A stretch of 64,000 bases of DNA from Thermoplasmatales archaeon SW_10_69_26 (GCA_003009755.1 PXUB01000001.1:64001-128000), one strand, 5' to 3'; shown: positions 23,289 to 59,989, numbered from the stretch's first letter. Notes: generated by a model from the sequence alone, not told the origin. Made by a program: numbers and translations.

Positions 23289-23519
23289 GATCCGTCCCCC
23301 TCTCCCGCGGATCACGCACGGCTCGTGCCGCATCAGACCCAGCCGTCCTAATCCGGGAGAGGGGACAGCTGACGCTATTCCCCTGTCAGGATCTTGGATC
23401 AGTCCCCTCTCCCAGGGATCACGGACGACCGTGCTGCGGTGTCTGCGGTCGTCCTAATCCGGGAGAGGGGACAGCTGACGCTACTCCCCTGTCAGGATCT
23501 TGGATCAGTCCCCTCTCCC
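23289..23519. repeat. tRNA-Tyr 3'-end palindromic tandem units (~106 bp period)
   Basis: 70 bp near-identical copies at 23344-23413 and 23450-23519 plus a partial copy at ~23289; arms are AATCCGGGAGAGGGGAC and its reverse complement. Confidence 0.85.
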
Positions 23520-23623
23520 GGATTCGAACCGGGGACATCCTGCTCTCTGCAGCGCCTGTCGGGTGCTCACCCGAGAGTGTTCTTCTACAGGCAGGCGCTC
23601 CGGCCAGTCTGAGCTAAGAGGGG
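23509..23623 (-). tRNA. tRNA-Tyr(GTA) with ~40 nt intron at the canonical position
   Basis: Acceptor CCCCTCT/AGAGGGG, anticodon stem CCTGC/GCAGG with GTA, T-arm CCCGG TTCGAAT CCGGG. Confidence 0.92.
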
Positions 23624-23785
23624 AGCGCCAGGCGATTCCAGAACCTGTACTTCAGCGTTCCGGCCCCGGCCGGGAGCGGACGTCGCGAACACCTGCCCCG
23701 AGCCCGGCAACTACAAGGTAGGCGAGGTTTTCATCGCCGCCGCGGTCGGCGCAGCGTTCCGCGGACCGCGTGCGGAGGACGACGC

Positions 23786-24163
23786 TTGCCCGACGACACC
23801 GTCACCGAGCCCGAGGAGCCCATCGTCGACGAGGACAAGGTCCAGGACCTGCGTTCCCTGCTCGGCGACGGCCCCGAAGGTGTCGACGGTCTGATCGACA
23901 CGTTCGTCGACCGCATCCCCGAGGTCATCGAGGACCTCGAACAGGCCGCCAGCAACGGCGACCTCGAGGAGGTCGGCAACCTCGCCCACAAGGTGAAGGG
24001 CGAATCCGCCACGCTGGGCGCCAAGCGGCTCTCGGAGCTGGCCAAGCGCATCGAGGGGCAGGCCCGCAACGACGAGCTGGCGGACCCCGAAGCGGCGGTC
24101 CAACTGCTGATCGACGCCTACGCGGAGACCGAGGACGCCTACGCGGCGCGGCGCAAGGATTAG
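23786..24163 (+). CDS. Hpt (histidine phosphotransfer) domain protein
   Basis: AHKVKGESATLGA..LS.LA..IE motif. Confidence 0.9.
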   Translation: MPDDTVTEPEEPIVDEDKVQDLRSLLGDGPEGVDGLIDTFVDRIPEVIEDLEQAASNGDLEEVGNLAHKVKGESATLGAKRLSELAKRIEGQARNDELADPEAAVQLLIDAYAETEDAYAARRKD

Positions 24164-24562
24164 CTACTTGATCCGGCCCGAGCTGCCCTCCTCTCGCCGG
24201 AGCAAGCGGATCAGCTCCTCGACGTCCGAGGAGTGGATCGGCTTCTGCAGGAAGTCGAAAGCCCCCTTCATGATCATCTCGCGCACACGGGGATCGTCCT
24301 CCATCAGGCCCGTGATGACGACGACGCGCGTGTCGGGGTCCTCGTTGAACATGACCTGAGCCGTCTGATCGCCGTCCACGTCGGGCAGCATGATATCCAG
24401 CAGGACGATGTCGGGTTTCTCCGCTCGGAAGACCTCGAGCGCCTCCTCCGAGCTCTCCGCCGTCAGGATCCGCTCATCCCGGTCCGTGAACCGCCGAAGC
24501 ATCTTCTCCAACGTCTGGCGGATGACGGACGAGTTGTCGACGATCAGGTACGTGCGGCTCAT
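24164..24562 (-). CDS. stand-alone response regulator receiver protein
   Basis: LIVDNS, PDIVLLDIMLPDVDG, GAFDFLQKP. Confidence 0.92.
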   Translation of the reverse strand: MSRTYLIVDNSSVIRQTLEKMLRRFTDRDERILTAESSEEALEVFRAEKPDIVLLDIMLPDVDGDQTAQVMFNEDPDTRVVVITGLMEDDPRVREMIMKGAFDFLQKPIHSSDVEELIRLLRREEGSSGRIK

Positions 24563-24652
24563 CGTTGGCGCTCGCGAGCGGTCCCCCCAGACCCATCTCG
24601 GTCCTCAACGTATAAGTTCCTGGCGTTTCCCCCTGCCGCGAAGGTCAGCCTC

Positions 24653-26110
24653 TCAGAACAGCGTCTCCTGCTTGCGGTGCTCCTCGCCGGGGATATCGAC
24701 CGGATACCGACCGGTGAGGCATCCGGTGCAAAGGCTGCCCTCGGGCTTCCCGATCGCTCGCTTGAGACCCGGGATCGAGACGTAGGCGAGGGAGTCGGCA
24801 CCGATCGTGTCGCGGATCTCCTCGACGGACTTGTCGGCCGCGATGAGCTCCTCGCGCGTCTTCATGTCGATGCCGAGGTAACAGGGCGCCTGGATCGGCG
24901 GGCACCCGATACGGACGTGGACCTCCTCGGCGCCGGCCTCGCGCAGCATGTCGGTGAGCTGGCCCATCGTCGTGCCGCGCACGATCGAGTCGTCGACGAG
25001 CACGACCCGGTTGCCCTCGACGACGCTCTGGACCGGGTTGAGCTTGATGTTGACGCCGCTGGCGCGCTCCTCCTGGCTGGGCATGATGAACGTGCGGTGC
25101 ACGTAGCGGTTCTTCATCAGGCCCTCCGCCATCGGGAGATCGAGCTGCCGGGCGAACCCGAGCGCGTGCGATCGACCGCTGTCCGGCACGGGCACGACGA
25201 TGTCGGCGTCCACCGGGCTCTCGTTGGCCAGCTGCTCGCCGATGCCGACGCGCACGTCGTAGACCTCGCGGTCGTCGATGCGGCTGTCGGCGCGCGAGAA
25301 GTACACGTACTCGAACTGGCAGTGCGCCAGGTCGGCGCTTTGCGCGTTCGTCATGTGGCCCTCGTAGCCGCCGGGCGTGATCTCGACGATCTCCCCCGGC
25401 TTCACGTCGCGGATCGGCTCGCCGCCCAGGGCCTCGATGGCGACGGTCTCGCTGGCGACGGCGTAGCCGCCGACCTCGCTCTCGGAGCCGTTCTGACCGC
25501 CGTAGGCGGCCGGCAGCTTGCCAAGCGCCAACGGCTTGATGCCGCGCGGGTCACGGACCGCGAGGATCCGTTCGCCGACGACGAGCACGAGGCTGTAGGC
25601 GCCCACGATCTGCCGCATGACGCGACGCATCGCGCGCACCGGGGACTTCGCGTCGGAGAGCTCGTTGGCGAACAGGCGGACGATGACCTCGCTGTCGTTG
25701 TCCGTGATGAACGCCCAGCCGCTCTCCTGGAGATCCTCGCGGATCCCGTCGGCGTTCACGATCTCGCCGTTGTGGCCGAGCGCGATCGAGCCCTCGGCGC
25801 TGGAGACGCACACCGGGTGCGCGTTCTCGAGCCGCGAGGTGCCGGCCGTCGAGTAGCGGGTGTGGCCGAGCCCGACGCGGCCCGTCAGCTGCTCGAGCTC
25901 CTTGGCCTGGAAGATGTTCTCGACGAGGCCCATGCCTTTGATCGTCTGCAGACCGTCGTCGAAGGTCGCGATCCCGGCCGACTCCTGTCCACGGTGCTGG
26001 ATCGCGCGCATCGCCTGGTAGAGGGCGGGCGCAACGTCCCGCTCCGCGGCGATGCCAGCGACCCCGCACTTGTCCTGCGCGAGCCCGGAGCGGTCCGGGA
26101 GACCATCCAT
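24653..26110 (-). CDS. purF: amidophosphoribosyltransferase
   Basis: KCGVAG, QHRGQESAG, GHTRYST, VPDSG, LVDDSIVRGTT. Confidence 0.97.
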   Translation of the reverse strand: MDGLPDRSGLAQDKCGVAGIAAERDVAPALYQAMRAIQHRGQESAGIATFDDGLQTIKGMGLVENIFQAKELEQLTGRVGLGHTRYSTAGTSRLENAHPVCVSSAEGSIALGHNGEIVNADGIREDLQESGWAFITDNDSEVIVRLFANELSDAKSPVRAMRRVMRQIVGAYSLVLVVGERILAVRDPRGIKPLALGKLPAAYGGQNGSESEVGGYAVASETVAIEALGGEPIRDVKPGEIVEITPGGYEGHMTNAQSADLAHCQFEYVYFSRADSRIDDREVYDVRVGIGEQLANESPVDADIVVPVPDSGRSHALGFARQLDLPMAEGLMKNRYVHRTFIMPSQEERASGVNIKLNPVQSVVEGNRVVLVDDSIVRGTTMGQLTDMLREAGAEEVHVRIGCPPIQAPCYLGIDMKTREELIAADKSVEEIRDTIGADSLAYVSIPGLKRAIGKPEGSLCTGCLTGRYPVDIPGEEHRKQETLF

Positions 26111-26231
26111 GACGGGCGAGTCATGGGTCGCTGCGGTACTTCAACGTTTGCTTCCGCACCGTCGAGCACCGGACAGGGGATCTCCAGCCGGCGCCCTGGG
26201 ACCGGTCGGCGAACCCCCTCGCGATCGAGCC

Positions 26232-26621
26232 TCACACGGTGGATTGGTCGAGGACCCGGCGGGCCTCGGCGTTGTCGTCGGTGATCAACACGAAGTTGCC
26301 TTGCTTCCCGTACGTCGTGCCGAAGCAGCTCTCGATGTTGATGCCCGCCTTCGCCAAGCGTCGACAGACGTCGGCGAAAGCGTGTCGGTCGTTCGACAGC
26401 GTCATCACGTGCACGTCCTCGCGCGTGCCCGCGAAGCCGGCCTCCTCGAGCACCTCGAGGCATCGGTCGCCGTCGCTGACGAGGAACTGCGCCTCGCCCT
26501 CGCGGCCTTTGGGGACCACGTTGACGCCCTCCACCTGCACCCCGCGCTCGGCCAAGATGCCCGTCAGCTTGGCCATCGCCCCCGGCTCGTCGGGGATCAC
26601 GGATCGGATCACGTCCGCCAT
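26232..26621 (-). CDS. tandem ACT-domain protein
   Basis: PDEPGAMAKLTGILAERGVQV and LAKAGINIE ACT repeats. Confidence 0.8.
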   Translation of the reverse strand: MADVIRSVIPDEPGAMAKLTGILAERGVQVEGVNVVPKGREGEAQFLVSDGDRCLEVLEEAGFAGTREDVHVMTLSNDRHAFADVCRRLAKAGINIESCFGTTYGKQGNFVLITDDNAEARRVLDQSTV

Positions 26622-26697
26622 CGGGTTGCTCAGATGTTCGGCCGACCGCATAAGGACTAGGGAAGGGCCGGGGATCGCTGCCGCCTGACCGACCCCC

Positions 26698-26999
26698 CGG
26701 TCGGCCGTCCGATCGAAGACGTCGTCGTGCTACATCGACTCCAACGCTCGGTCGAGGTCCGTCGTGAGATCGACTGGAACCCCCACCCCGAGCATCGGCT
26801 CCCCACGGTGGGCCCCGCAGCAACGATGCTCGGGATCCGGCCGAAGCAGAGCTTAGGCCTCCCGCTGGCGTCGGCCCTGCGGGCAGCGACGCCAGCGACA
26901 CGGACGGCCTCGACGGTGGGCACGGTCGGCCGTCCTATCGAAGACGTCGTCGTGCTACATCGACTCCAACGCTTGGTCGAGGTCCGTCTCGAGATCGAC
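26698..26999. repeat. 77 bp direct repeat of the PLP-enzyme gene 3' end (26698-26774, 26923-26999)
   Basis: CGGTCGGCCGTCC.ATCGAAGACGTCGTCGTGCTACATCGACTCCAACGCT.GGTCGAGGTCCGTC..GAGATCGAC twice, 225 bp apart. Confidence 0.85.
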
Positions 27000-28894: not shown

Positions 28895-28943
28895 CGGCCG
28901 GCCAACCGCGTCCCGCCAGGTAAAGGCTTCCGGGCGCGGCAGG

Positions 28944-29756: not shown

Positions 29757-29902
29757 ACCTCACGAACGCGGACGTGCGTGAAAAGCCAACGGGTGGGGAG
29801 GGGGGCCATAGGGAAGCTCAGCGCTTCGCCCGTCAATCATCCACAACGCGGATGTGAATCTTCTCGAAGGGACGCTTTTACCTCTGTATGTTCTAGATTC
29901 GA

Positions 29903-39669: not shown

Positions 39670-39753
39670 GCCGAGGTCGCCTAGCCTGGTAGGGCGCAGC
39701 ATTGGAAATGCTGTGGGCTTCCACCCACGGGCGTTCAAATCGCCCCCTCGGCG
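39670..39753 (+). tRNA. tRNA-Ser(GGA)
   Basis: Acceptor GCCGAGG/CCTCGGC, anticodon stem CAGCA/TGCTG with GGA, long variable arm, GGGCG TTCAAAT CGCCC. Confidence 0.95.
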
Positions 39754-39820
39754 CTTCTCGCGGCCACGCGCCGCCTCGCCGAACCGAACACCTTATCCGC
39801 GAGCAGCCGATGGTGGGTCG

Positions 39821-41919: not shown

Positions 41920-42087
41920 CGCCCAGCGACGCGGACGGATTCACGGCCTTCGTCACCCCTCCACAACGACGGCGGCGACCGCCAGCAGGCCGAGATCGAC
42001 TGCCTCGGGTGCCTTTGAGCACTCGCGGGGCGACCAGCCCTCGAAGCCTAAAGACCAAGGAGGCCCAGCCGAACCGGGAGGCCGAGC

Positions 42088-43569: not shown

Positions 43570-43599
43570 GCCGCTCGCGGCGGGGGACCGGGCGAGCGC

Positions 43600-43716
43600 T
43601 GGGAACCTCGGGATGCAGAGGTCCGAGGCATCGATGCAGAACGAGGACCTCTGCCAACGACGGGAACACGAGGCCTGCAGATACCGTGGAAAGAGGCCGA
43701 GTGGTCCCGTCGGGAC
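43600..43716. repeat. 102 bp tRNA-Glu 3'-end-bounded unit (att-like), distal copy
   Basis: Near-identical to 50140-50256 and similar to 50467-50581; ends in TGGTCCCGTCGGGA. Confidence 0.85.
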
Positions 43717-43994
43717 TTAGACCCTCTCGAGGAAATCGGGGCGAGCCAGATTCTGAGGCTCGTGGCTCGGAATGCAGGGTTCTCGCTAGCGCCCTCGCGG
43801 GCGCCTCCCTCTTCTTTTTCTCTTTCACTCCCCAGCCGCGAGGCTCGCCAGCTGCGCGACCAGCTGATCGAGGCGGCCGAGGACCCGCACCTGGAGGCCC
43901 TCGACGTCGAACCGGGGTGGCTGATCGCGTTCGCCGCCCACCTGACGGCTCACCTGGAGGGGTGGATATCACGGTGACTCCTCCTTCCGCGGGG

Positions 43995-44369
43995 TCACTC
44001 GAGCATCGCCGCGATGCGGTCCACGAACCCCCGAGCGTCCTCGAGGACGCCGCGGGCCTCGTCCTTCGAGATCCCCGGCTCGGGCTCGTAGTCGCTGACC
44101 TGACGCTTCTGCATCGTCGTCGACAGCAACCGGCCCATCTCGCCGGGCAGCGGTCCGTCCTGCACGAACCGCTTGCCGAACTCGGTGATGACCCCGCGAT
44201 GGGTGGAGGCGTCGACGCCTTCCTCGAGGAGAGCCGCCTCGGCGACGAAGAACATCGCGTAGTAGGCACGCGAGACGCAGGACTCGGGGTCCCCGTTGTC
44301 CAAGAGCAAACCGGCGCTGTCCAGGTAACGACCCGCGCGATCGAGCAGGGCCTCGACCTCGCCGGTCAT
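43995..44369 (-). CDS. HEPN domain protein
   Basis: SRAYYAMF, THRGVI..FG, RQVSDY. Confidence 0.9.
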   Translation of the reverse strand: MTGEVEALLDRAGRYLDSAGLLLDNGDPESCVSRAYYAMFFVAEAALLEEGVDASTHRGVITEFGKRFVQDGPLPGEMGRLLSTTMQKRQVSDYEPEPGISKDEARGVLEDARGFVDRIAAMLE

Positions 44370-44686
44370 GCGGGCACGCCCTCGCGGCGGACGTTGCGAA
44401 GTAGGGGGCTGTTGCCTTGCTCGAAGTCCGGCTTGGCTACGGGGACGACGGACAGGAGCACCTCGTGCTCCATGTCGATCTGCCAGGTGAGCTCGCCCAT
44501 CCGGTCGATCTCCTCGAACCGGTCGACCGGGCCCTCGAGGACGACCATCAGGTCCACGTCCGAGGCGTCGGTCGCCTCGCCGCGGGCTTGCGAGCCGAAG
44601 AGGAGCACCTGGTGCAGGCGGTCGCCGTACAGCTCCTGGGCCCTCTGCTTGAAGGCCTCGACGGCCGATCGGGTCGCCTCGTCCAC
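44366..44686 (-). CDS. minimal nucleotidyltransferase (MNT)
   Basis: LFGSQARGEA...SDVDLMVV; overlaps the HEPN start. Confidence 0.9.
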   Translation of the reverse strand: MDEATRSAVEAFKQRAQELYGDRLHQVLLFGSQARGEATDASDVDLMVVLEGPVDRFEEIDRMGELTWQIDMEHEVLLSVVPVAKPDFEQGNSPLLRNVRREGVPA

Positions 44687-44749
44687 GGCAGGCCCTGGTA
44701 GGCGCTCTACGTCCTTTAGGTTCTCGCTTCCGGCCGCCCGCTGAGCACC

Positions 44750-44846
44750 GTCAACCTCCAGTGAACACCATGTCAACCCGCCCGCGCCTCCTGGATCAGC
44801 CCCTTGCCGTTGACGAGGTTGACACCAACGTCGACCCGGCGTTGAC
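44750..44846. promoter_or_regulatory. phased GTYRAC box cluster (operator/iteron-like)
   Basis: GTCAAC/GTGAAC/GTCAAC at 44750, 44761, 44772; GTTGAC/GTCGAC at 44809, 44818, 44830, 44841. Confidence 0.5.
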
Positions 44847-44867
44847 ATCGCCCCGGGAGGGAATCCT

Positions 44868-45685
44868 GTGAGCTCGGTTTCCGAGCTGACCGACGCCCAG
44901 CAGCGGGTCATCGAGCGCCTCTACGAGGGCAAGTACGCGGCCGCGATCGCCGACGAGGTCAACGTCACCCGGCAGGCGGTCAGCAAGCACGTTCGCAAGC
45001 TCGAGGAGAAGGGGCTGATCACCGAGCACGCGGGCGAGACCGCCTTCTACCGCCGCTCGCTCGGACAGGGCACCTCGTTCAAGATCTACGGCCTCACCGA
45101 CGCCGGCCTCCAGGCCCTCCGCGAGGCCCAGGGCCTGGGGCCAGGGGAGACGCCGCGGACGCCGTCAACGGGGTTGACGGAGCCTCCACCGGGGCAGTAT
45201 GAGGACGTCAACGAGCCAGCCGTCCACAACGCGCCAGCCGAGCGTGGGCCGCGGGTCGAGGTGCACAACTATCGAAGTCAAGATCCCGATCGAGGACGAC
45301 CAAGCCAAGCTCTGGCTACCCAACGAAGCCGAGCTCAACAACTGGACCCGCCGCTGGGACGAGAACGTCCACGGCGTCTTCCTCGAAGCCACCACCCGAC
45401 ACCTGCTGCGCGCCGGCGCCGAGGCCCGCTCGGTCGAGATCGCCGAGGGGCTGGTGCTCCGGAAGCTCGTCAAAGCGATCGAGCTGCTCGAGGACGCCTA
45501 CGGGCTCGAGTTGGGCGCGCCCGAGTTCCGCTGCACCTACGAGCCCGGCAAGGGCAAGGTCGGTGTCACCGGCCACCCGCTGGCCGAAGGCCGCGGCCAC
45601 GACGAAGGGGGGCTGGCGACGATCGACGACACGCCCGAGCCCGACACGATCCACGCGACCGACGACCCGGCGGACGTCGACCACG
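44868..45685 (+). pseudogene. winged-helix protein of mobile-element type, frameshifted (~45270) and 3'-truncated
   Basis: IADEVNVTRQAVSKHVRKLEEKGLI HTH; continues EVHNY / EVKIPIEDD in another frame. Confidence 0.6.
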
Positions 45686-48989: not shown

Positions 48990-50139
48990 TCGTCTCGTGG
49001 TGACCGAGGCAGGGTCGACGGCGAAGCGGAGCAGGCTGCATCCGGCTTGAGCCCGGCGGCCATCTGCATCGACAGCAATGGCCCCGGCGTTCGCCGCTGG
49101 CCACCTCGCCGACGTAGCGCTCGACCGAGATCCCTCTCGTGATACGTCTCCGGGTAGCCCGGGATCCAGCCGTCGGTGACGAGCGCCTCCAGCCCCAACC
49201 GTGACGAGATCCCGCCTCCCACGGGGCGATCATCGTCTTCGACGAACCGACGAGCTCGCTGTCGGGGACCGATCGGGGTGGGCGTGCAGGTGGTAGGCCC
49301 GCCAGGCCGTCCGCGAGGCGTCGGCGAACACCGTCTCGCTGAGCGCCACGATGCCCTCCACGTCCCTGCGGACGGCGGTCCCGCCCCGTGGATGGACCAT
49401 CGCGCCGGGCAATCCTGCGCGAGCGGGAGCGCCTTCCGCCGTGTGGCATCCACGCCAGACGTTAAGACCATCTCTCCACAACGTTAGAGCCTCCGCGGGC
49501 TGACCAGCGATTACCCCGACGTGACCACCGGCGGTAGAGCTAGGGTTTTTCCTCGCGGCCACGCACCCACCGATAGAGGATCCACGCGGAGACTCCCAAC
49601 AGCAGGGCCACGACGAGAGCGATGATCAGTGAGGCGATCTCCACCTGGCGGAGCCCGAACATGGTCAGATGTTTTAGAACTGCTTGTTGTATGTATTATT
49701 CTAATGGGTGCGGGACCAGGCATTCGCCTGGCTGCAGGCCAGATCCGTCGGCGACCTGCTAACAACTCCGGAGACTTTTCTGTTTGAGGATGTCAAAGGG
49801 AGATGGGCTTACCCGCACATCCTCGACGAGGGCCGGGACCTAGAGTGCCATTACGTGATCACGGACGAGCCCACCGAAGGCGGCGTCACGTGGAACGACC
49901 AACCCAGCGGCGACGACCTGAACCTGCAGGACACGACGGCCACGAGAACGTGAACACCACCAAGAAAAACTACGAGAACGAAGCCCGGTACCCCCAGAAC
50001 CTGTATGGAGACCGCTGGCTGTTGCGAGCGCTCGAGGACTCGCTGGCGGTCTCGAGGCTCGGACGGACCCTCGCTGGCGCTTCGGCTCCGTCGAGCTTCT
50101 CGACGGCTGCGCCGCCGTGGGGGATCAGCCGTCGAGAAG

Positions 50140-50583
50140 TGGTCCCGTCGGGACGCAGAGATCCGAGGCATCGATGCAGAACGAGGACCTCTGCCGACGA
50201 CGGGAGCACGAGGCCTGCAGATACCGTGGAAAGAGGCCGAGTGGTCCCCTCGGGATTCTCGTACGAACCTCGCTTCGCTCGGTTCGGACGGCTCGCAAGC
50301 CCTTCCCGCTTGCTCGTAACCTGTGGTTCAAATCCCTCGGTCCCACTTCCTCTGGATGGTGGGCGAGAAGCCGCCCGTCGGGATCTCAAGACGTGGCGGA
50401 GACCGGGCACGTCTTGAGAGACGACGGGACCACGAGCGAACGTGGCCACAGGAGAAGGTGAGCGAGTGGTCCCGTCGGGATGCAGAGGGCCGAGACGACG
50501 ATGCAGAACGAGGACCTCTGCAAACGACGGAGACCCGAGGCCTGGAGATACCGGAGAAAGAGGCCGAGTGGTCCCGTCGGGGA
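50140..50583. repeat. cluster of tRNA-Glu 3'-end-bounded palindromic units / att remnants
   Basis: TGGTCCCGTCGGGA-like copies at 50140, 50242, 50374, 50467, 50569 with antisense copies and hairpins between them. Confidence 0.85.
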
Positions 50584-51103
50584 CTATCCTCCATACCGGG
50601 AGGGGCTGGAGCCAAAACCGCCCCCGGTTTTGACGGTTTCCGGCTTGGACCCTGATACGTGGACGGCGAACCCGTCCGCGTCTCCCTCTTTCTCCATTTC
50701 AGACCCCCCACCTTCTCCGACCCCGACGACGAGCCGAGCGTGCCGCAGCGCCCTCCGAGGGGCGACCGGCGATCAGGTCGGGCGGCCCATCATGGTCCCG
50801 CCCGAGCGACAGCGAGGGCGGGGCCTTGATGAGCGCCGGCCGATGCTCCGCCAGCCCCGAGGGGAAGCGAAGGCACGCGAGGCAGGAGGAGCGGGGAGCG
50901 GCCCCGACGGCGAGCCGAGACGCCGTAGCGACCCTCCGAGGCTCGCCCGCCAACCGTCAACCTCACCCGCCAACTTCCCCCACAAGCAGACTCGGGAACG
51001 GGCCGTCGAAGGCGGGTGCGGAGAAACCTGGAAACCAGCCACGCACTCTTGTCTAGTAGACGGAAGCGCACGCACGGGCCGCCCCTATGGGGCGGCCCGC
51101 TCG

Positions 51104-52105
51104 GTGTATCCTGCCCCTACGGTGGACTACGATGCAGCCCCACCCTCCACAGACGAGGCCCAGCATCCGCCCGCCGTCTTCGCCACCCTTCCCGGCCAAG
51201 CCGACGAATGCGGCGAGAGCGAGTGCGGCAACGTCATCGGAGCCGAAGCCTGCTCCCATGCCGAGCACAACCCTGAGGACCACGACCTTCGGCTATTCTA
51301 TCAGACCTGCGAAGGCCGCACCTGTCCCCAGGGATTCGAGGACTGGATTAACGACCGCGCCGACAAAGCCCTCCACCGGCTCGTTGACGGAAAGAAGGCC
51401 TACGCTGAGGAAGGCAAGAACCTCGGCCCGGTCAAGCACGTAATCTTCTCCCCACCCCCGGAGGAGACCGACGCCTATCGAAACGAGGATGGCTACGGCC
51501 AGCTCGTCCGCGATGCCTACGAGCACGCCCGCGAGGCCGGTATGGATGGGGGCGTGGCTATCCCGCACCTCTGGCGGCTCTCAGACGACCTCAAAGCCTG
51601 CCTGCGAGACGAAGGCTATGGAATCGGTGAGGAGAACGGCGGCCTCTGGCAAGGCGTCCACGACGACGCACTCGGCCTCGGCCATTGGCGAACCTACGTC
51701 ACCTTCAGCCCCCACGTTCACCTCCTCGGTACCGGCTACCTGGAAAACGCCCGAGAGTTCAACGACCGAACGGGCTGGGTCTACCACAACAAGGGAAAGC
51801 GTCCCTCGCCGGGCTCGGTCCATTCCACGGCCGCCTACATCCTCAGCCATGCCGCCCTTGTGGACGGCAGCCGCGCCCTCCGCTGGTGGGGTGTCTTCTC
51901 CTACAACAAGCTCGCCAAGGTCGAAGAACTCGTCCGCCGAGAGCCGAAGACATGCGAATGCGGCGAGCCGATCTATGAGTACCCGACCACCAAGGACGGT
52001 ACCCGCGTCGGCTGGGAGCATCGGGGCTCTCCAGCAGAACGGGTGGAGAAGACCGTTCTCTATCGGGTCGTGGGCAAGCCTCCGCCGGGGGGAGTGCAGT
52101 GTTAG
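51104..52105 (+). CDS. rolling-circle replication initiator (HUH endonuclease)
   Basis: Cys cluster, KHVIFSPP, GGVAIPH.WR, FSPHVHLLG (HUH), AAYILSH; start uncertain (frame open from 50480). Confidence 0.8.
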   Translation: MYPAPTVDYDAAPPSTDEAQHPPAVFATLPGQADECGESECGNVIGAEACSHAEHNPEDHDLRLFYQTCEGRTCPQGFEDWINDRADKALHRLVDGKKAYAEEGKNLGPVKHVIFSPPPEETDAYRNEDGYGQLVRDAYEHAREAGMDGGVAIPHLWRLSDDLKACLRDEGYGIGEENGGLWQGVHDDALGLGHWRTYVTFSPHVHLLGTGYLENAREFNDRTGWVYHNKGKRPSPGSVHSTAAYILSHAALVDGSRALRWWGVFSYNKLAKVEELVRREPKTCECGEPIYEYPTTKDGTRVGWEHRGSPAERVEKTVLYRVVGKPPPGGVQC

Positions 52106-52292
52106 AGGTGGAGTGCGAGCGATGTGGCCATACGTGGATGGAACACGGAGTGGCCCAATGGGAATGTCCGCGATGCGGGAGCCTTTACGGTCGGTGGCCC
52201 GCAAACCGCGACTAGCCGCCCAACACCCGTTCGATAAGTAATCGTCCCGTCCGAGGATACCGCCTTCTCTCATCGGGAACGAAGATGAAGCG

Positions 52293-53405
52293 ATGGACGG
52301 CGTTCCGCGACCGGAGTCCCGGCTTGTTTCGCCTCCGACGGAGGGGAAACTACAATTTAGCTGGGCTGCTTTAGACCCGGACGCGGAGACTGAGGGAGCG
52401 GCTGTGGAAGATGGTTTCGAATATCCGGGCTATCTGCTGTTCAACGAGATTGTACATGTCCAGGAAATCGGCTTCGATGGCCCGCAGACGATAGGAGAGG
52501 AGCTTTCGACTTTCGGAGACGGGACCCCCACCAATCCATCGAAGGGGTTTCGGCAGCTTGATCTGAGTGAGGAGGTCGACGTGCGGGTATTCGAGACTGA
52601 GAGCTTCGCCCCTGTCGTCGAAGATATGCAATCCTTCGAGTATATAGCAGAAGATTACGGTACCCAAATGGAGTTCGTGACAGGCGAGGGGGACCGCCAA
52701 CAGGGACGCCCCAGAAGCTTGGACCGAGCCCATATCCATTGGCATTGGCCCGACTACTTCTTCGTCCAAGGGTCACAATCTGTTGCCGAAGCTGCAGCAG
52801 AGGAGATAGTTTCAGAGCTGGACTTGGACAGCGCAGATGTTCAGCGTTTCACCTTTGACAACGATTTCTTCTTATGGATGTACAAGAAGAATCACGACGG
52901 AGACCCCCTTTCTGAATCACTGGATCTGCTCAAGTGGACTGACGCGGAAGCGACGGGCGATCTTCCCTACCTCGGGAGTTCGACAGAAGTCCAGGAGTCA
53001 GAGGACGTTGGGCGTTCTATACCCATCCTCGTCGCGGTCCTACGGAATATGGACCTAGCCTCGCTGGAGGGAATCTTCGAGGTAGGCTCGTACGCGATGA
53101 CAGCTAGCATCGGAAGCCAAGGCAAAGTCCACGTTAAATCCGAGCAGACTGTGCAGAAAGCGTCCAATATCGCTCGGGTCTTTCTGTCAAATCTTTTCCT
53201 CCACGAACTTACCAACCTCTACGAGAACTGGAAAACTCTAGATCCTGAGGAGAAATACCCTCATCCCTCCTTCTTCTCTAGCCTCTGGGATAATGCCTCT
53301 GAACAAGGCGCCAACCTTGACATGGACTTCGACAGAGTCGTCGAGGAATACGCTGCGAAGCGTGGAGAGAGCGCAGAAGACTATGACTTCGATTTCGGTA
53401 ACTAG
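52293..53405 (+). CDS. hypothetical protein (island cargo gene 1)
   Basis: 370 aa acidic low-GC ORF, first of a tightly packed run. Confidence 0.8.
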   Translation: MDGVPRPESRLVSPPTEGKLQFSWAALDPDAETEGAAVEDGFEYPGYLLFNEIVHVQEIGFDGPQTIGEELSTFGDGTPTNPSKGFRQLDLSEEVDVRVFETESFAPVVEDMQSFEYIAEDYGTQMEFVTGEGDRQQGRPRSLDRAHIHWHWPDYFFVQGSQSVAEAAAEEIVSELDLDSADVQRFTFDNDFFLWMYKKNHDGDPLSESLDLLKWTDAEATGDLPYLGSSTEVQESEDVGRSIPILVAVLRNMDLASLEGIFEVGSYAMTASIGSQGKVHVKSEQTVQKASNIARVFLSNLFLHELTNLYENWKTLDPEEKYPHPSFFSSLWDNASEQGANLDMDFDRVVEEYAAKRGESAEDYDFDFGN

Positions 53406-53416
53406 GGGTGTGAGAT

Positions 53417-54043
53417 GTGCTGAAAGCCTTGAGAAAAGTGGAAGGCGCCTCCGGCACCCACCCCAGAAGCCAAAACACAGAAAGCCTGCGGCTAGAGCTC
53501 CGCGACGAATGGCGCCTGAATCAAGCGGCCCTTGATGACTATCCATTTCTTGATCAGTTAGTGCTGGAGGGACGGTATGAGTATTCAAAAGATCCGACCT
53601 GGGGATCACCGGAGCACGTCGATGGTTCCTTCCAACTCCGGACGGCCTCTGGCCTCCTTCTGATAGAGATCAGCGCAGATCGCCCATCCCCGACGGAGCT
53701 CGCGAAGGAATTCGATAAGGCTATCGATTCGGGCTTGCGTGTGAGCAGGGACTTCGTACCCTCTCGCGGGAAAGTGTGGTCTTTCGTTGATCAGGCGGAT
53801 AGCGTTCTGAGTCTCCGGGCTCGAGACGAGACAGGACAGGTACGGAATCTTGCGGAAGTACATGACGCACAAAACCCCAGAGAATGGACCGTAGAACACG
53901 CGAGCTTGAAGTTCGGTTATGGTGGCGGATTCTTCCTCGATTTCGAGCGAGACTCAATCTCCATATACGGAGTCGATGAGGGGGATGAGGAGCCAGCGAT
54001 AGAAACTCTGGAAGTTGCCTTTTTGACAGGGATTTGGGACTAG
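53417..54043 (+). CDS. hypothetical protein (island cargo gene 2)
   Basis: 208 aa, 11 bp after gene 1. Confidence 0.75.
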   Translation: MLKALRKVEGASGTHPRSQNTESLRLELRDEWRLNQAALDDYPFLDQLVLEGRYEYSKDPTWGSPEHVDGSFQLRTASGLLLIEISADRPSPTELAKEFDKAIDSGLRVSRDFVPSRGKVWSFVDQADSVLSLRARDETGQVRNLAEVHDAQNPREWTVEHASLKFGYGGGFFLDFERDSISIYGVDEGDEEPAIETLEVAFLTGIWD

Positions 54044-54054
54044 GGGGTCCTGGG

Positions 54055-54630
54055 GTGTCCACAGAGAGAATCAAAATATTTTGGAACAGAGCCCGGGAGT
54101 GGAGATGGTTTGGCTTCTTCACTTATGCGTCCACATTCCCTTGGATCGGCAGCTCATTCTTCCAGTCCTTTTCAACCGAGTGGTTTCTAATTGTCGGAGC
54201 AGCCCTTCTCACTCATGTTTTCCCTCTAGTCTGGGTGGGACTGACGCAGAGGCCGTTTTATCTAAAGGTCGATTGGGTCCCCTTAGACGATGAGGGCGTA
54301 GCTTGGCGGAGGAAGTCGTCAGGGATCGTAGCGATGGAAAATGGATCTGGCGCCATCCAGGTCTTCTTTGAGGTAATTGAAGGTGCGGAGGATATCGAGG
54401 TCTCTGTGGACGCTGATACGCCTTACTATGCGAGCCCTAACCAGCCTCCTGCACCCCTTCGCTGGAGAGATGGCACGCTCTTGTTGGAAGATGGAGACTT
54501 GGAGAATAGGGAGTTCTACGTCAAGATAGAGCTCGTCCAGGATAGTGCTCTGGCTGGCGGAATGGACCATGAAGTCTATCTCCAGGATGAGCGGTCAGGG
54601 AAGGAGCTGTTGAGGGTACCCATCAATTAG
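54055..54630 (+). CDS. hypothetical protein with two N-terminal TM helices (island cargo gene 3)
   Basis: Hydrophobic WFGFFTY... and WFLIVGAALL... segments followed by a beta-rich domain. Confidence 0.7.
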   Translation: MSTERIKIFWNRAREWRWFGFFTYASTFPWIGSSFFQSFSTEWFLIVGAALLTHVFPLVWVGLTQRPFYLKVDWVPLDDEGVAWRRKSSGIVAMENGSGAIQVFFEVIEGAEDIEVSVDADTPYYASPNQPPAPLRWRDGTLLLEDGDLENREFYVKIELVQDSALAGGMDHEVYLQDERSGKELLRVPIN

Positions 54631-54761
54631 GCTTCCGGAGGGCCAACCGGGGAGTCTTCCGGTCTCTCCGGCAACGATGAGGTCCTTCTTCACGGTGAAG
54701 GGAGTATCCTCTTAGGCAGGGAACTGGTTGCTCTACTCACTCCGACTGAGCGAGGGGATGG

Positions 54762-56159
54762 ATGATGGCGCTCCAAGAACCGATTCCCGGGCCAGATAGC
54801 GGAAAGCGGAACAAGCTCCTAGACCGGGACCGGGAGATACACGATTGGTATCGGTTCGTATTGGGGTATCCGCCCCACCTTGTCCGCCTCTACCTCGATA
54901 GGTTGGAAGCTGAACCCGGTGAAGACAGGGTACTTGATCCATTCTCGGGTACGGCCACAACACCCGTCGAAGCCCGGAAGAACGGCTTTTCGACCATCGG
55001 TGTTGACGCAAATCCGATAACTAGCTTGGCCACCCGCGTCAAGCTTCGATGGGGGTTGGATACGGACGACCTCATAGAACAGCTTGCCTCGATCATAGAT
55101 GACGCCGCTGGCCGTCTCCTTGCTCACGATCTCGACCCGCTTGTAGACGGAGGCTTCCAAACTCGTCTTGAGGACAAGGCGTTTGAAGGAGACATACCCG
55201 ATCTCGGCGCCCTAACCTCCGGCGCGGCCCCTTCTGAGCCAGTCAACGTTGATGTTATCCTCTCGGAGAGCGCCAAGAAACTCATTCCGAAAGGGTTCAT
55301 CAGCGAGAAGCCCCTCAAACGAGTTCTCGCACTCCGGCTGGCAATAGAGGAGAATACCGAGGTCATCGAACGAGAGGAGTTCTTCTTCCTAGCCCTATCG
55401 AACACAGTCGTTTCCACGGCAGGTAACCTCGGCTTCGGGCCAGAAGTATATCGAAAGAGCCCGAAAGAGGATGCTGGAGTGTTGTCGGATTTCTTCGGCG
55501 TATCGGCCCAAATGATCCACGATCTAACCCGAGTCCAGAATCAAGGGGATCTGCCGTCCGCCTGGACTCGTTCCGGGGACGCTCGGACAATGGATTGTTT
55601 AGAGGGTCTCCCACCCAGCGATCTGATTATCACTTCACCGCCTTATCCGAACGAGAAGGACTACACGCGGAGTACTCGCCTGGAAACCGTCTTGCTCGGG
55701 CTCGTGGAGGAGCAGTCGGATGTTCAAGACATCAAGAGGTCACTGCTCGTCAGCAACTCCCGGAATTGCTACGTTGATGTAGATGATGGGAAGCATATCG
55801 AGGACATAGACGAGATTACCTCCCTCGCGGACAGGATTGAAGAAAAGCGGATTGAACTTGGCAAGGATTCAGGGTTCGAGAAAAAGTACCACGAGATAGT
55901 TAGGCATTATTTCGGCGGTATGTACCTGCATTTCGAGTCCTTGAAGGACCACCTTAACCCCGGTGCGAAGCTCGCGTATGTCGTCGGAGATCAACAGTCC
56001 TATTTCCGCATCAATATCCCAACGGCGGACCTTCTGGAGAAAGTTGGTAAGAAGGCGGGATACCAGCCTCTCGATACAGAGCTATGGCGCGAGAGGTTTG
56101 CTACGGAAACCGAAAAGACGATTGATGAAAACGTGCTCCTCCTGGAGTACCCAGGATAG
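54762..56159 (+). CDS. amino (N4C/N6A) DNA methyltransferase
   Basis: HDWYRF, VLDPFSGTATT (motif I), IITSPPY (motif IV). Confidence 0.92.
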   Translation: MMALQEPIPGPDSGKRNKLLDRDREIHDWYRFVLGYPPHLVRLYLDRLEAEPGEDRVLDPFSGTATTPVEARKNGFSTIGVDANPITSLATRVKLRWGLDTDDLIEQLASIIDDAAGRLLAHDLDPLVDGGFQTRLEDKAFEGDIPDLGALTSGAAPSEPVNVDVILSESAKKLIPKGFISEKPLKRVLALRLAIEENTEVIEREEFFFLALSNTVVSTAGNLGFGPEVYRKSPKEDAGVLSDFFGVSAQMIHDLTRVQNQGDLPSAWTRSGDARTMDCLEGLPPSDLIITSPPYPNEKDYTRSTRLETVLLGLVEEQSDVQDIKRSLLVSNSRNCYVDVDDGKHIEDIDEITSLADRIEEKRIELGKDSGFEKKYHEIVRHYFGGMYLHFESLKDHLNPGAKLAYVVGDQQSYFRINIPTADLLEKVGKKAGYQPLDTELWRERFATETEKTIDENVLLLEYPG

Positions 56160-56164
56160 TCCAG

Positions 56165-56977
56165 ATGTCTGAGGATGAAGCGACCGTCGAAATAGCCGGG
56201 TCAGAGATTCGCCTGACTCAGTTCTCAGACTACGAGCAAGTTCTCCTCGCTGTCTTTGCGGAGCACTACGAGGAAGGCGATGAGGAGATTGAGTTCGAGA
56301 AGGATGAGTTCGCCGACGCCGCAGATGATCTGGGTCTGAGAATAAGGAACATCCCGGACGTGGTCTACGCTTTCCGATCCCGTAGGCCTCTGCCAGACCC
56401 AATCACGACCATTGGAGATTGGATAATCCAGCCGGCAGGCAAGGGGTCATACAAATTCCAATTGCTACAGAGCGCCCCTCAGTTCGATTTGAACTTTGAG
56501 GCGTATCAGCCGATTGAAATCTATAACTCGGTTCCGGAGGTAGTTCAAAAATTCCTTCGGGACGATGAGCAGTCTCTACTCACTACCATCCTATACAACA
56601 GAGTCATCGATATTTTCACAGGGCTAACCTGCTTCCATATCCAGAACCACTATCGGGCCAGCGTCCCAGGCACCGGCCAAGTCGAGCTCGACTCTTTTTA
56701 CGTTGGCGTGGACGACAAGGGAGAACTTTACGCGATCCCTATCGAGGCGAAAGGTGCAGCGGAATCCGAGAAAATCGGGCGGGTGCAAGTAGCACACATG
56801 TCGGAACTCGCACAACAAGATTTCCCTAACTTAGACCGCCGGATTCTCGCCATCAAAGAATTGGAAGATGGGACGATCTGTGCCGTCGAGTTCTCAGAAG
56901 GCGATTCGCCGGACGATTACAAAGTGAGACAAGTCCGGCGATTCGATCTAATACGAGAAGACCGCACTCGTCCGTAG
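56165..56977 (+). CDS. type II restriction endonuclease (PD-(D/E)xK)
   Basis: QVELDSFYVG...IPIEAK; immediately downstream of the methyltransferase. Confidence 0.8.
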   Translation: MSEDEATVEIAGSEIRLTQFSDYEQVLLAVFAEHYEEGDEEIEFEKDEFADAADDLGLRIRNIPDVVYAFRSRRPLPDPITTIGDWIIQPAGKGSYKFQLLQSAPQFDLNFEAYQPIEIYNSVPEVVQKFLRDDEQSLLTTILYNRVIDIFTGLTCFHIQNHYRASVPGTGQVELDSFYVGVDDKGELYAIPIEAKGAAESEKIGRVQVAHMSELAQQDFPNLDRRILAIKELEDGTICAVEFSEGDSPDDYKVRQVRRFDLIREDRTRP

Positions 56978-56981
56978 AAGG

Positions 56982-57635
56982 CTAGTCCGCCTTGTCCGGT
57001 CTGGTCCTTTTCTTTTCCTCCTCATCCAGGAGGTTGGGAGGATGATGACCTCGCTGGAGAGGGTAGGGCCAGGGATCGGGCGGAGTCCAGACATTCGCGC
57101 AGGCAGGGCACGCCCAATCGAGCCCAACCCGCCAATCAGCAATCTTCAACGCAAGGTCGTGGTGCTCCTCTGCCTCTCCTTCTTCGACCGGCTTCCTGGC
57201 TCGCGGGCTCAGGTACCAGTCCGGGATTTCCCTCTCAGGAATCCGCTTTGGTAGAGGATAAGGGTCAATCAGGTACCAAGTCCCGCACTCGGTACATCTC
57301 ACCCGTTGTTGAGGCTGGACGCACTCAGCGTTTTCGCACCGCCCGGACCCTTCCTGGATCGAGTCGGCGCAAGCGACACAGTATCTCGCCTGACTGAGAG
57401 AGACATAGCCCCCAGCCCCAGGGGAGTGAATAACACGATATTCTTTCTTCAGTTCCCTCAGAGCACGGTTTTGCGTTCCGGACGGCTCTCCGCTGAACAG
57501 CTCTCGCTTGGAAGCGGGGCCATCCTCTAATTCCGTGAGGACTGCCTCTTTCTCCTCCTCTTGTCGACTCTTTGCCACCTCAGACTCCCCTCCTTGGACC
57601 CGCTCGCCCTTCTTCTTGGACCCATTCGGGCCCAT
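56982..57635 (-). CDS. HTH and zinc-finger protein
   Basis: N-terminal HTH-like region; CxxC pairs CVAC, CENAEC, CTEC, CPAC. Confidence 0.6.
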   Translation of the reverse strand: MGPNGSKKKGERVQGGESEVAKSRQEEEKEAVLTELEDGPASKRELFSGEPSGTQNRALRELKKEYRVIHSPGAGGYVSLSQARYCVACADSIQEGSGRCENAECVQPQQRVRCTECGTWYLIDPYPLPKRIPEREIPDWYLSPRARKPVEEGEAEEHHDLALKIADWRVGLDWACPACANVWTPPDPWPYPLQRGHHPPNLLDEEEKKRTRPDKAD

Positions 57636-57889
57636 TGACGGCTCCGCCTACTGATGTGCTAGGGCGAGAATGAGAGCGTGCTTCGCTGGCCCGGGCGGTT
57701 CCCCTCCCGACCCGGGCCGGCGGGGCCACCTTAAGCATGTCCGCTGAGAAGCCATCCGCCCCAGGCTCGAAAGGGTTTCCCCCTGGATCACTCGCCGTCT
57801 CCCCCTCACGGAACGGGGAAAGCTCCAACTCACCGTCTCCTCCTGCGGCCCGTGGAGGTGAACGCCCAACACCACACACGGGCACACCG

Positions 57890-58953
57890 ATGGCCGAACC
57901 CTGGCAAAACGAACACAACGCCAGGGTCCAAGCGATACTTGAGCGAAGCAACACGGCAGAGTTCGATCCGACCCGAGAGGGCTGGAAGCAATGGATGAAG
58001 GAGGACCGTGGACTGGCGACGAAGACCCGGGCCAGCTACATTCGGAGCCTCGACCGACTCGAACGGAACGGAGTCCTGACGGATGGCTCGGTCGGGGATT
58101 TCGTCTTGACCGCCCGGGAGCACTTCTTCCACCGCCGAGACGTGGAGGAGCGCCAGCGACCACTTTGAAGAACGACCTGAAGGCGATCAAGTGCTATGGC
58201 GATTATCTCGGCGTCCCCCGGAAACTTTGGCCGAAACAGCCCACGGTCAAGCAGAAGACCACCAAGCTACCCAGCCCCGAAGCCGTCCGCCACCTCCTGA
58301 CCGACAACTACCGGGAGGACTCGACCCGCAACGAGCTCGTTCTGACTGTCATGCGGGTCATGTTCGGGCTAGGACTCAGACCCAAGGAGGCCTACGAACT
58401 CCGGCTCCAACACTTCTACCCGGAGGACCACCTCCTCCGAGTCCCGAGCGTAAAGAACTCGGCGGACGGAACAGAACCGCTCATCATCGAACCGGAATGG
58501 CTCTGCTGTGGAACCACCCGGCCCAGCCTGCTGAACTGGGTCGAGCACCACCGACCGAAGCTCGACCCTACGACGGACGCCATGTTCCCGCACTTCGAAG
58601 GCGGGGACTGGCCCTCCGCCGAGGCCTTCTGGCAATACATCAAGCGCCCGGTGAAGAAGGTCTACCCGGGCTACTGGAACCGCCTCGGCCGCAAGTGGTC
58701 CGTCAACGCTCGCCTGATCGAGAGCAAGCAAGGCAGCCGGTACGACTGGAGGGGCGTGGCCAAGTTTCATCGACACACTACCGACACGTCAGTTCGGAAC
58801 TACGAGCAGTCGGTGGAACTCCACGAGAAGCTGTACGGCGACAACTGGATCACACGCGCCTTCCAGAAGCTCCCGGGCGAGGAAACCGAGCCTCGCTGGG
58901 GGGTTTTGGACCCGTCCTCTTCTGGGGAGTACGATGGTCCCGTCGGGATTTGA
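57890..58953 (+). pseudogene. tyrosine recombinase/integrase with frameshift near 58150
   Basis: RGLATKTRASY N-domain in one frame; GLRPKE, SVKN, RLGRK, HRH, VRNY in the next; stop lies inside the tRNA-Glu antisense. Confidence 0.85.
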
Positions 58954-59009
58954 ACCCGAGTGGTCGCCTCGAGAGGGCGAAATGATTGGCCGGACTACAC
59001 CACGGGACC
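58935..59009 (-). tRNA. tRNA-Glu(CTC)
   Basis: Acceptor GGTCCCG/CGGGACC, anticodon stem TCGCC/GGCGA with CTC, TCGGG TTCAAAT CCCGA. Confidence 0.95.
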
Positions 59010-59204
59010 GTTCCGGCTTGCGCCGTGAGCCCAGCAACCCCATCAGCATCAAAAAGGTTGCGGGCGGCGCTTGCGACGCCTTGTCGCATCCGCCTTCCCC
59101 CTCGATCCACGCTCTCGGCTGGAGCCGCTGCTCTTCGCGTTCTTCCTGCACGAAACCTTGACCAAGCCCCACGTAGTGACCCCGCCGCCGCTTACGTGCG
59201 GGCT

Positions 59205-59697
59205 GCGGGGGTAGCCTAGCCAGGTCATTCGAACGGATCGGAGATCCGTCCTCTCCCGGGATCCGCGCGAGTCGCCGTCGGTTCCCGGGATTCGCACGGA
59301 CCTCGCACCGTCGTCGGTTCGTACTCGCCCGAGAAGGCAAGCTTCTCGGGCATCCGTACGGCCAAGGCCGTACTCGCTCGGAACCGAAACACGGTTCCTC
59401 GCGGAAACCTTGACCTGGAGGCGACCTCCATCGGCACAAGTCTGCGGAGGTAGCCTAGCCAGGTCATTCGTACGAACCGTTCATCCCTGCCGGTTCGTAC
59501 TCGCCCGAGAAGGCAAGCTTCTCGGACAGGAAACCTTGACCTGGCAGGCTCCCTCATTGCCACGAGGTCTGCGGAGGTAGCCTAGCCAGGTCATTCGCAC
59601 GAACCGCGCGATCGCTACCGGTTCGTACTCGCCCGAGAAGACGAGCTTCTCGGGCAGGAAACCTTGACCTGGAAGCTACCTCCATCCCACGGTATCC
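59205..59697 (+). repeat. tandem units starting with the first 23 nt of tRNA-Ser(TGA)
   Basis: GCGGAGGTAGCCTAGCCAGGTCA at 59205, 59444, 59571 (127 bp period to 59698); each unit ends with antisense CCTTGACCTGG...CCTC. Confidence 0.9.
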
Positions 59698-59781
59698 GCG
59701 GAGGTAGCCTAGCCAGGTCAAGGCGCCGGTCTTGAAAACCGGTGGGCCTAGCCCACGGGAGTTCAAATCTCCCCCTCCGCG
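59698..59781 (+). tRNA. tRNA-Ser(TGA)
   Basis: Acceptor GCGGAGG/CCTCCGC, CCGGT CT TGA AA ACCGG, variable arm TGGGC/GCCCA, GGGAG TTCAAAT CTCCC. Confidence 0.95.
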
Positions 59782-59792
59782 CTTCTCCAGGG

Positions 59793-59989
59793 CAAGGCGC
59801 CGGTCCCGCAGGACGCCCGTCAGGGCGTCCGAGGTGCGGACGAACCGACGATTGGAGGGTTCGTCCAGCATTGAAAACCGGTGGGCTTAGCCCACGGGAG
59901 TTCGAATTCCGGGACCGAGCCTGCCGGCGCCTCGGCCCCGCAAGAGCACGGATCTGTGATCCGTGCGAATCTCCCCCTCCGCGCTTCTC
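59793..59989 (+). pseudogene. second tRNA-Ser(TGA) copy (from D-loop to 3' end) with two ~65 nt hairpin insertions
   Basis: CAAGGCGCCGGTC [insert] TTGAAAACCGGTGGGCTTAGCCCACGGGAGTTCGAAT [insert] CTCCCCCTCCGCGCTTCTC. Confidence 0.8.

Follow-up and report, generated by a model that had tools for sequence, protein, structure and literature searches.

The stretch analysed here, referred to as the window, comprises 64,000 nucleotides (nt) of the Thermoplasmatales archaeon SW_10_69_26 (PXUB01000001.1:64001-128000), an uncultured archaeon from halite (salt crust) for which no haloarchaeal affiliation is shown and whose class comprises only 21 species genomes. Three of its tRNA genes, those for Tyr, Glu and Ser(TGA), are accompanied by tandem units of ~100 nt, built around an inverted and a direct copy of the end of the very tRNA that they adjoin. 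Across the genome, the same unit grammar recurs at no fewer than 20 tRNA genes. On balance, and with modest confidence, we regard the units as counterparts of the tRNA-linked repeats (TLRs) of Escherichia coli, that is, as a known but unexplained kind of repeat and not as a new category. A sequence-only reading of the window had proposed tandem units at these three loci, which was confirmed (spacings of 106 at Tyr and 102 at Glu, period of 127 at Ser), and a single grammar at unrelated tRNAs.

The source assembly is a 2.8 Mb draft in 49 contigs, with ~69% G+C and 95% completeness; positions given below are window coordinates unless another contig is named. We write X for a direct copy of the tRNA end, X′ for an inverted copy and s1 for the spacer between tRNA and unit. 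Around 59 filtered ARAGORN tRNA calls of the genome we searched for copies of at least 11 nt of the tRNA's own last 26 nt, inverted within 400 nt or direct within 600 nt downstream, with 2592 non-self pairs (the end of one tRNA against the flank of another) as controls. An inverted copy was observed at 16/59 calls against 15/2592 control pairs and a direct copy, 11–19 nt long and ending at the discriminator, at 21/59 calls against 34/2592. Both kinds together were present at 13/59 calls and in 0/2592 controls, so that the claim of one grammar is upheld. Since some ARAGORN calls are false, the true share of unit-bearing tRNAs lies above the counted one. The proposed self-comparison of tRNA flanks, together with covariance models searched in archaeal genomes, thus brought out sense and antisense copies and model matches beyond the loci of the window.

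The order of the parts is constant: tRNA, s1 (9–100 nt), X′, hairpins and X, with s1 again after X in arrays. Units begin 9–100 nt past a same-strand tRNA at Tyr and at least 12 other tRNAs, the exception being Ser(TGA), where they lie upstream and inverted. Their number per locus ranges from one to three or four (two at Tyr, three at Arg-TCG, three or four at Ser-TGA). X spans the T loop to the discriminator and X′ matches the local T-loop variant (TTCGAAT or TTCAAAT), indicating that it was copied from the local gene. All of the extracted units fold (26/26): X′ and X form a closing stem that encloses, in this order, a small hairpin, hairpin A of ~11 bp, the linker GAGAG, hairpin B of 7–9 bp and the tail CGAAATCC, the number of enclosed hairpins varying from 1 to 6 per unit. 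In an alignment of 18 units, 18 of the 24 consensus pairs showed changes on both sides. Such covariation in the closing stem merely reflects the different tRNAs, while that of hairpins A and B is real. Unit structure is conserved and unit sequence little conserved. Tyr, the Gly tRNAs and Leu-CAA have units of another body type, with one or two different hairpins. T-rich trailers follow the tRNA directly in 5/21 direct-copy loci and the last copy in 7/21, and they follow the tRNA in 13/38 copy-free loci; their position is thus not discriminating.

The A-GAGAG-B-CGAA doublet is at the same time a dispersed repeat. We examined it with a model of the hairpin doublet (R2), which took over from a simpler doublet scan that was too permissive (38868 hairpins) and with which 150 of 7510 candidates were scored; its E-values, like those of the unit model R1 below, are rough. 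R2 found 52 copies in the genome at E<=0.01, of which 30 lie within 800 nt of a tRNA (~3% of the genome) and 22 elsewhere. This agrees with the earlier claim that the arms are locus-specific and the inner modules shared. At least three further doublets adjoin displaced tRNA-end copies, and partial tRNA copies also harbour doublets, in either orientation, where the D, anticodon, variable or T loop would be. R1, a covariance model of the unit built from archaeal units alone, matches 48 places of the same genome at E<=0.1. On contig C48 (7858-8015), an A-GAG-B doublet directly follows tRNA-Asn with neither an inverted nor a direct end copy, a variant of the grammar.

The inner doublet resembles REP/BIME sequences and the PATE, MITE (miniature inverted-repeat transposable element) and SMR repeats of Haloquadratum, small-repeat categories described in a section of PMC3119063: all are short non-coding hairpin clusters with fixed linkers and intergenic dispersal. 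In contrast to these repeats, the outer arms of the units are copied from the local tRNA and are not family-wide terminal repeats, and the doublets are enriched near tRNAs. The Y1 transposase domain PF01797 has 0 matches in this 95%-complete genome, and a PATE or REP moved by a Y1 transposase (IS200/IS605 or RAYT) was accordingly rejected. The same holds for a MITE, since the arms vary with the tRNA and equal the local tRNA end and no parent element was found. In the sequences we saw no defining feature of a hammerhead-like core, a kink-turn, group II intron fragments, retron non-coding RNA, casposon ends or tRNA-primed reverse transcription, all of which were set aside on inspection and not by a formal test.

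In E. coli, the grammar is seen at tyrosine tRNA genes. In K-12, the order at tyrT/tyrV is X′ (GGGGAAGGAT), GAGAAGC...AAGGTTCGA, hairpins, and AATCC followed by X. R1 matched all four tyrT/V units (24.8–27.8 bits, E 7e-5 to 4e-4), which the Rfam family RtT (RF00391) matches at 133–137 bits; rttR is an annotated non-coding RNA in RefSeq. [quoted passage not shown] TLRs were noticed as early as 1978 and have 'no known function'. The same passages report that rrn TLRs (RrB) are made by terminator read-through and end just past the repeated sequence, and that the RrA/B/F repeats bind Hfq and CsrA in vitro. A part of the preprint 10.1101/2024.07.17.603846 notes raised coverage at tyrT-rttR, which it puts down to RNA/DNA hybrids and not to circles.

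Like the E. coli TLRs (the 178-bp tyrT repeats or RtT-RttR, and rrA/rrB/rrF), the archaeal units stand directly downstream of the tRNA, recur in tandem and place the 3′-end copy last. With the tyrT units they further share the inverted copy, a GGAT-GAGAA...GGTTCGA core and inner hairpins. They differ in their archaeal host and in their spread over at least 20 tRNA genes, against ten E. coli loci; their hairpin modules, which are diverse and exchangeable, also invade loops within incomplete tRNA copies, the 5′ end of a tRNA underlies one mirror-image array, and the archaeal 5S rRNA gene has no unit. The possibility, left open by the sequence-only reading, of a match to an already described repeat family is thus realized in part by the TLRs, as far as the passages of PMC8144298 describe them. 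In the literature searched, which did not take in supplements or the E. coli papers of 1978–1999, no such units were described in archaea or outside E. coli.

Bacterial loci outside E. coli were found with a core motif, the exact GGATGAGAACC-N2-6-GGTTCGATC, a scan that sees one subtype only. It occurs at 57 loci of a species-genome collection, mostly bacterial and including many Sphingobacterium, Gammaproteobacteria, Akkermansia, Longimicrobiales and Patescibacteria and one uncultured Thermoplasmatales archaeon. Among these, 35/57 lie 29–143 nt downstream of a same-strand tRNA, and 29 of the 35 have a direct copy of at least 11 nt of that tRNA's end; as many as four units occur in tandem. At an orthologous tRNA-Pro site of Sphingobacterium, one locus (L109) is empty and another (L121) filled. 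The insert has brought in a terminator from a different tRNA-Pro locus, followed by X′, core and body, and the native terminator stands after the distal X. Within one genome, units at a tRNA-Ser and a tRNA-Asp share 83.6% identity over 116 nt in their bodies, while each has the arms of its own tRNA. In a relative of Sphingobacterium (L113), a run of GGTTGGTTGAAAGTGGTTTA-like short tandem repeats follows a tRNA-Pro unit.

Among archaeal relatives, R1 matched 3/5 other genomes of the family, 5/20 others of the class and 7/150 others of the phylum sample; many of these genomes are incomplete, so that a missing match is no proof of absence. Of the relatives' loci examined, 9/12 have a unit downstream of the tRNA with arms fitting that tRNA, one is degenerate and two do not fit. 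At tRNA-Tyr in two genomes of another genus, the arms follow the tRNA's own acceptor sequence. At tRNA-Gln(CTG), a unit is present at the same place in three genera; between genomes G002 and G003 the spacer of this locus is 77% identical and the body 56%, and both bodies fold. Units, modules and island are also gained or lost in related populations, as three variants on halite metagenome contigs related to this genome illustrate. A contig of run X2 is without one 126-nt Ser unit (skip between 59402 and 59529), and one of run X4 continues from 59907 with letters fitting 59968 onward, as it would without the 60-nt T-loop module. In run X3, from a related halite population, one contig carries the empty site of the island, joining 50466 to 58935 with 15 letters in common.

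In the window, tRNA-Ser(GGA), tRNA-Glu(CTC) and tRNA-Ser(TGA) were identified by both ARAGORN and Rfam, while tRNA-Tyr required ARAGORN with the intron option and was missed without it and by Rfam (Table 1). Rfam at gathering scores found only tRNAs in the whole window. No units lie beside the tRNA-Ser(GGA) gene at 39670. At the Tyr locus, X corresponds to the last ~17–22 nt of the tRNA, T loop to discriminator. Downstream, a 70-nt direct repeat with 99% identity constitutes the two units, which contain inverted copies of 12–22 nt of the tRNA 3′ end, and the second unit borders directly on the stop codon of the neighbouring open reading frame (ORF).

Table 1. Coordinates of tRNA genes, units and associated features in the window
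Feature	Position	Strand	Remarks
tRNA-Tyr(GTA), 40-nt intron	23508-23623	-	ARAGORN, introns allowed; contig C1 87508-87623
Tyr spacer s1, 35 nt, ahead of unit 1	23473-23507		
Tyr unit 1: X′ 17 nt, one hairpin, X 12 nt	23402-23472	-	Fold -49.5 kcal/mol
Tyr unit 2	23297-23366	-	Grammar of unit 1, other hairpin sequence
tRNA-Ser(GGA)	39670-39754		ARAGORN + Rfam
tRNA-Glu(CTC)	58935-59009	-	ARAGORN + Rfam
Original downstream array of tRNA-Glu	50138-50481	-	
Direct tRNA-Glu end copies in original array	50143-50157, 50243-50257, 50467-50481		
Inverted tRNA-Glu end copies in original array	50197-50210, 50422-50436		
Glu type-1 unit	50242-50340	-	R1 54.6 bits, E 9.5e-12
Second Glu-array unit	50382-50480		
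Integrated island, 8468 bp, low G+C	50467-58934		Between tRNA-Glu and its unit array
Extra Glu unit at distal end of island	50482-50582		
Tyrosine-recombinase-like ORF in island	57991-58953	+	Pfam Phage_integrase, E 7e-4, 19.8 bits, under the 27.1-bit cut-off
tRNA-Ser(TGA)	59698-59782	+	ARAGORN + Rfam
Mirror-image Ser array, 3-4 units of ~127 nt, on tRNA-Ser 5′ end	59190-59697	-	
R1 matches in Ser array	59451-59546, 59578-59674, 59212-59307	- (all three)	
Partial tRNA-Ser copy (positions 22-85), broken by two hairpin inserts	59787-59989	+	
Hairpin module at anticodon-loop position of partial copy	59806-59870		
Hairpin module at T-loop position of partial copy	59908-59967		CGAAT on either side

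At Ser(TGA), the 5′ 23 nt of the tRNA anchor the upstream units, and positions 22–85 are copied downstream. Tandem Repeats Finder gave 2.5 upstream copies with 86% matches. Four direct copies of tRNA positions 1–23 are present there, each preceded by an antisense copy (positions 15–26), and a unit is made up of the antisense copy, a linker, the sense copy and two hairpins. Both the module order and the better fold, by strand energies, belong to the minus strand. The predicted array is therefore real, with the correction that its units are mirror images on the tRNA 5′ end and score on the minus strand. A module GTACGAACC-N9-15-GGTTCG, claimed as common to Ser and Glu units, has four exact matches at three window sites (50261, 59470 on both strands and 59600 on the minus strand), against 0.01 expected from dinucleotide shuffles, with at least four matches in 0/100 of them; the site claimed at ~59838 reads GGACGAACC, one mismatch from the module.

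Hairpin modules at D-, anticodon-, variable- and T-loop positions of tRNA-like copies could suggest disrupted tRNA genes, i.e. multi-intron, split or permuted archaeal tRNAs with the inserts as introns. Non-canonical archaeal introns are known at such loop positions. We find this explanation very improbable: most units are without tRNA positions 1–48, an intact tRNA gene always stands beside the units, and bacteria, although they have no splicing endonuclease, show this architecture too. The single full-length copy has an implausible anticodon loop. An intron or a split tRNA gene was rejected as an assignment on the same missing positions and the bacterial occurrence, bulge-helix-bulge motifs not having been searched for. 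The full-length tRNA-Leu-like copy lies upstream of tRNA-Leu(TAA) on contig C29 (55061-55480), with an altered anticodon loop and with hairpins inserted into the variable arm (two) and the T loop (four).

The Glu locus combines units with an integrated element, the 15 nt at the 3′ end of tRNA-Glu being the repeat common to both ends of this island (G+C 0.52–0.61 across 52–58 kb). Further copies of this end lie 8.4 kb off at 50138-50582; four of them are direct and three are inverted, and the spacings are 102, 225 and 327. The recombinase-like ORF overlaps tRNA-Glu, the complement of the tRNA's 3′ end supplying its final codons, and a homologue of this ORF (37% identity, E 7e-36) adjoins tRNA-Phe on contig C19. 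A 30-residue integrase-like C-terminal remnant (E 8e-6) adjoins the far end of the Glu array. Thus an integrase gene and cargo between tRNA-end repeats characterize the 8468-bp island, not the ~100-nt units, which encode nothing. Within the island, ORF 54762-56159 has a partial DNA-methylase match, and most of its ORFs are without a Pfam match. Both true island junctions are devoid of an adjacent X′, and in the one case seen the island is joined at tRNA-Glu itself, not at a distal copy. For the suggested role of the units as spare or decoy attachment sites, the tRNA-end copies standing at the island junctions, as att sites do, count in favour, and this choice of the tRNA itself counts against.

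Displaced tRNA fragments at attL and attR are like the units in being direct tRNA 3′-end copies that start in or near the T loop, and one pair flanks the island. Unlike them, the units are ~100 nt long and gene-free, with an inverted copy, a conserved fold and tandem recurrence. As a passage of PMC9897764 states, tRNA fragments left behind by integration are well known. The X copies might then be passive scars of old att sites, on which an unrelated REP-like hairpin family lands. Besides such fragments, the island and integrase-like remnant flanking the Glu array and the 22/52 doublets located away from tRNAs fit this explanation. It does not account for the inverted copy at a fixed place (16/59 calls against 15/2592 controls), for the conserved core in common with bacteria, or for the unit kept at tRNA-Gln(CTG) in three genera, and we judge it improbable.

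The explanation that we prefer, by a judgement only slightly better than even, is that the units are TLR counterparts spread by recombination at X, co-transcribed and processed like tRNAs, and mostly tolerated as hitch-hikers. A unit would be a fold-back copy of the tRNA's 3′ third. It would begin with X′, an antisense copy of the T arm and acceptor 3′ strand, and pass through a short turn into the T arm's 5′ half; hairpin modules, between one and six of them, would occupy the position of the T loop, and the sense copy X, T loop to discriminator, would close the unit. X′ and X would form a closing helix of 9–12 bp mimicking the stacked acceptor and T stems of the adjacent tRNA. Recombination between X copies could multiply and move units, producing tandem arrays and also transferring a unit, along with a foreign spacer, between separate genes of one tRNA, and the conserved T-loop flanks could let units swap hairpin modules. 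The units may be transcribed together with the tRNA; ending in a tRNA-like terminal helix, they would then be excised and stabilised by the enzymes that process tRNA ends, a fate reported for RttR and RrB in E. coli. The units would accordingly be DNA repeats expressed as processed by-products of tRNA transcription, most likely tolerated hitch-hikers, and the X copies may double as extra attachment sites for integrative elements.

Strand preference and spacing are consistent with co-transcription. The tRNA-co-oriented strand folds more stably in 20/24 archaeal units (Wilcoxon p=0.0014; 56 against 35 G-U pairs) and in 19/25 bacterial units (p=0.0098), p-values that are overstated because the units within each set are related. 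The shortest spacers between tRNA and unit, 9–13 nt at Val-TAC, Glu-TTC and Leu-TAG, leave no room for a promoter. Several points besides this relatedness weigh against the explanation. The bacterial units show no G-U strand bias (73 against 69) and sit beyond an intrinsic terminator, and the Ser(TGA) array, on the tRNA 5′ end and opposite to the tRNA, fits a strand-blind DNA process better than a co-transcript. Among the sequencing runs listed for window 58900-60000 none was of RNA, and transcription and processing in the archaeon are extrapolated from E. coli only. The 5S rRNA gene of the archaeon has no unit downstream, whereas three E. coli rrn operons do. The Rfam search that had been proposed for the unit-bearing loci, RF00391 included, gave no match on six of them at E<=0.1 or on three more archaeal loci at E<=1; RF00391 misses all archaeal and other bacterial loci tested, and since it does not match the archaeal ones, common descent is not shown, and universal T-arm sequence could explain the likeness. 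Finally, this explanation does not account for the matching of X′ and X to a new tRNA.

Alternatively, the units could be mobile elements at the DNA level: miniature cassettes with a hairpin attachment site (X, spacer, X′) that recombine with the X of the tRNA as single-stranded DNA, RNA being incidental. We consider this unlikely, if well worth weighing. The order X-s1-X′-body-X is what would remain after a hairpin attP had undergone a single strand exchange with the tRNA. The foreign terminator in the filled Sphingobacterium site, the mirror symmetry of the Ser(TGA) array, the tandem arrays, the conservation of structure but not of sequence and the end copies at the island junctions also point in this direction. 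However, such an exchange would put the body ahead of the T-arm half, next to X′, and not after that half, where it is observed. The units have no recombinase linked to them, 2.9 million viral contigs gave 0 matches to the core motif, and the two real island junctions and the missing Y1 transposase speak against it as well. Three bacterial loci that lack a distal copy were examined out to 7–20 kb and held only truncated units, with no larger parent element. Integron attC sites and the CTX phage attP are imperfect palindromes with a variable branched tip, whose fold and not sequence is conserved and which form arrays beside a fixed primary site. On this general background, the units are comparable in their conserved fold, variable sequence and arrays at a fixed site; they differ in that their arms equal a tRNA end and that they also occur in archaea. 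The earlier proposal of a non-autonomous element adapting to the tRNA beside which it lands was partly supported, by the empty and filled site, the 83.6% identical bodies with differing arms and the variation in copy number.

Benefit to the host was considered as well: the RNAs could be anti-tRNA regulators or decoys for acceptor-end toxins, or the units deliberate decoy att sites. The closing helix mimics acceptor and T stems, the RrA/B/F repeats bind Hfq and CsrA in vitro according to the passages of PMC8144298 cited above, and the window holds two HEPN/MNT pairs, as had been noticed earlier (HepT-like with NTP_transf_2 at 7813-8438 (+); HEPN, PF05168, with NTP_transf_2 at 43995-44911 (-)). 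Nothing ties these pairs to the units, and no co-occurrence or neighbourhood link with toxins was seen, none having been formally tested. Moreover, X′ is locked in the closing stem and so is not free for pairing with the tRNA, the single island observed was joined to the tRNA itself and not to a distal copy, and the same passages assign TLRs no known function. We hold host benefit to be quite improbable.

A broader view, unlikely in our estimation, takes TLRs as one ancient or repeatedly transferred class in bacteria and archaea, self-tagged with the acceptor/T 'top half' of the adjacent tRNA. Both arms would be templated from the tRNA 3′ third by copying or recombination, at either end and on either strand of the tRNA gene. 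Persistence and spread could proceed via tRNA end-processing and the CCA machinery, or via folded-DNA recombination.

Elsewhere in the window, tandem repeats of 69/138 nt (6978-7390) and 66 nt (13576-13953), with a related consensus ACAACACC.TCACCGACAAC... and scores of 429–562, probably encode repeats of two related proteins. A 911-residue ORF at 42009-44744 (+) has no Pfam match at E<=0.001.

TLRs have been on the E. coli map since 1978 without a function, and the literature searched treats them as an E. coli feature. The same architecture flanks about half of the tRNA genes in an uncultured archaeon and recurs by tRNAs in Bacteroidota, Proteobacteria, Verrucomicrobiota and Patescibacteria, and a single structural model links these cases. 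For annotation, tRNA and island finders will be misled by what the units yield: tRNA fragments, pseudo-tRNAs and additional sites of island attachment. What was an E. coli oddity becomes a comparative problem, with many independent copies and with empty and filled sites, and offers a route to the arm-matching mechanism and to function.

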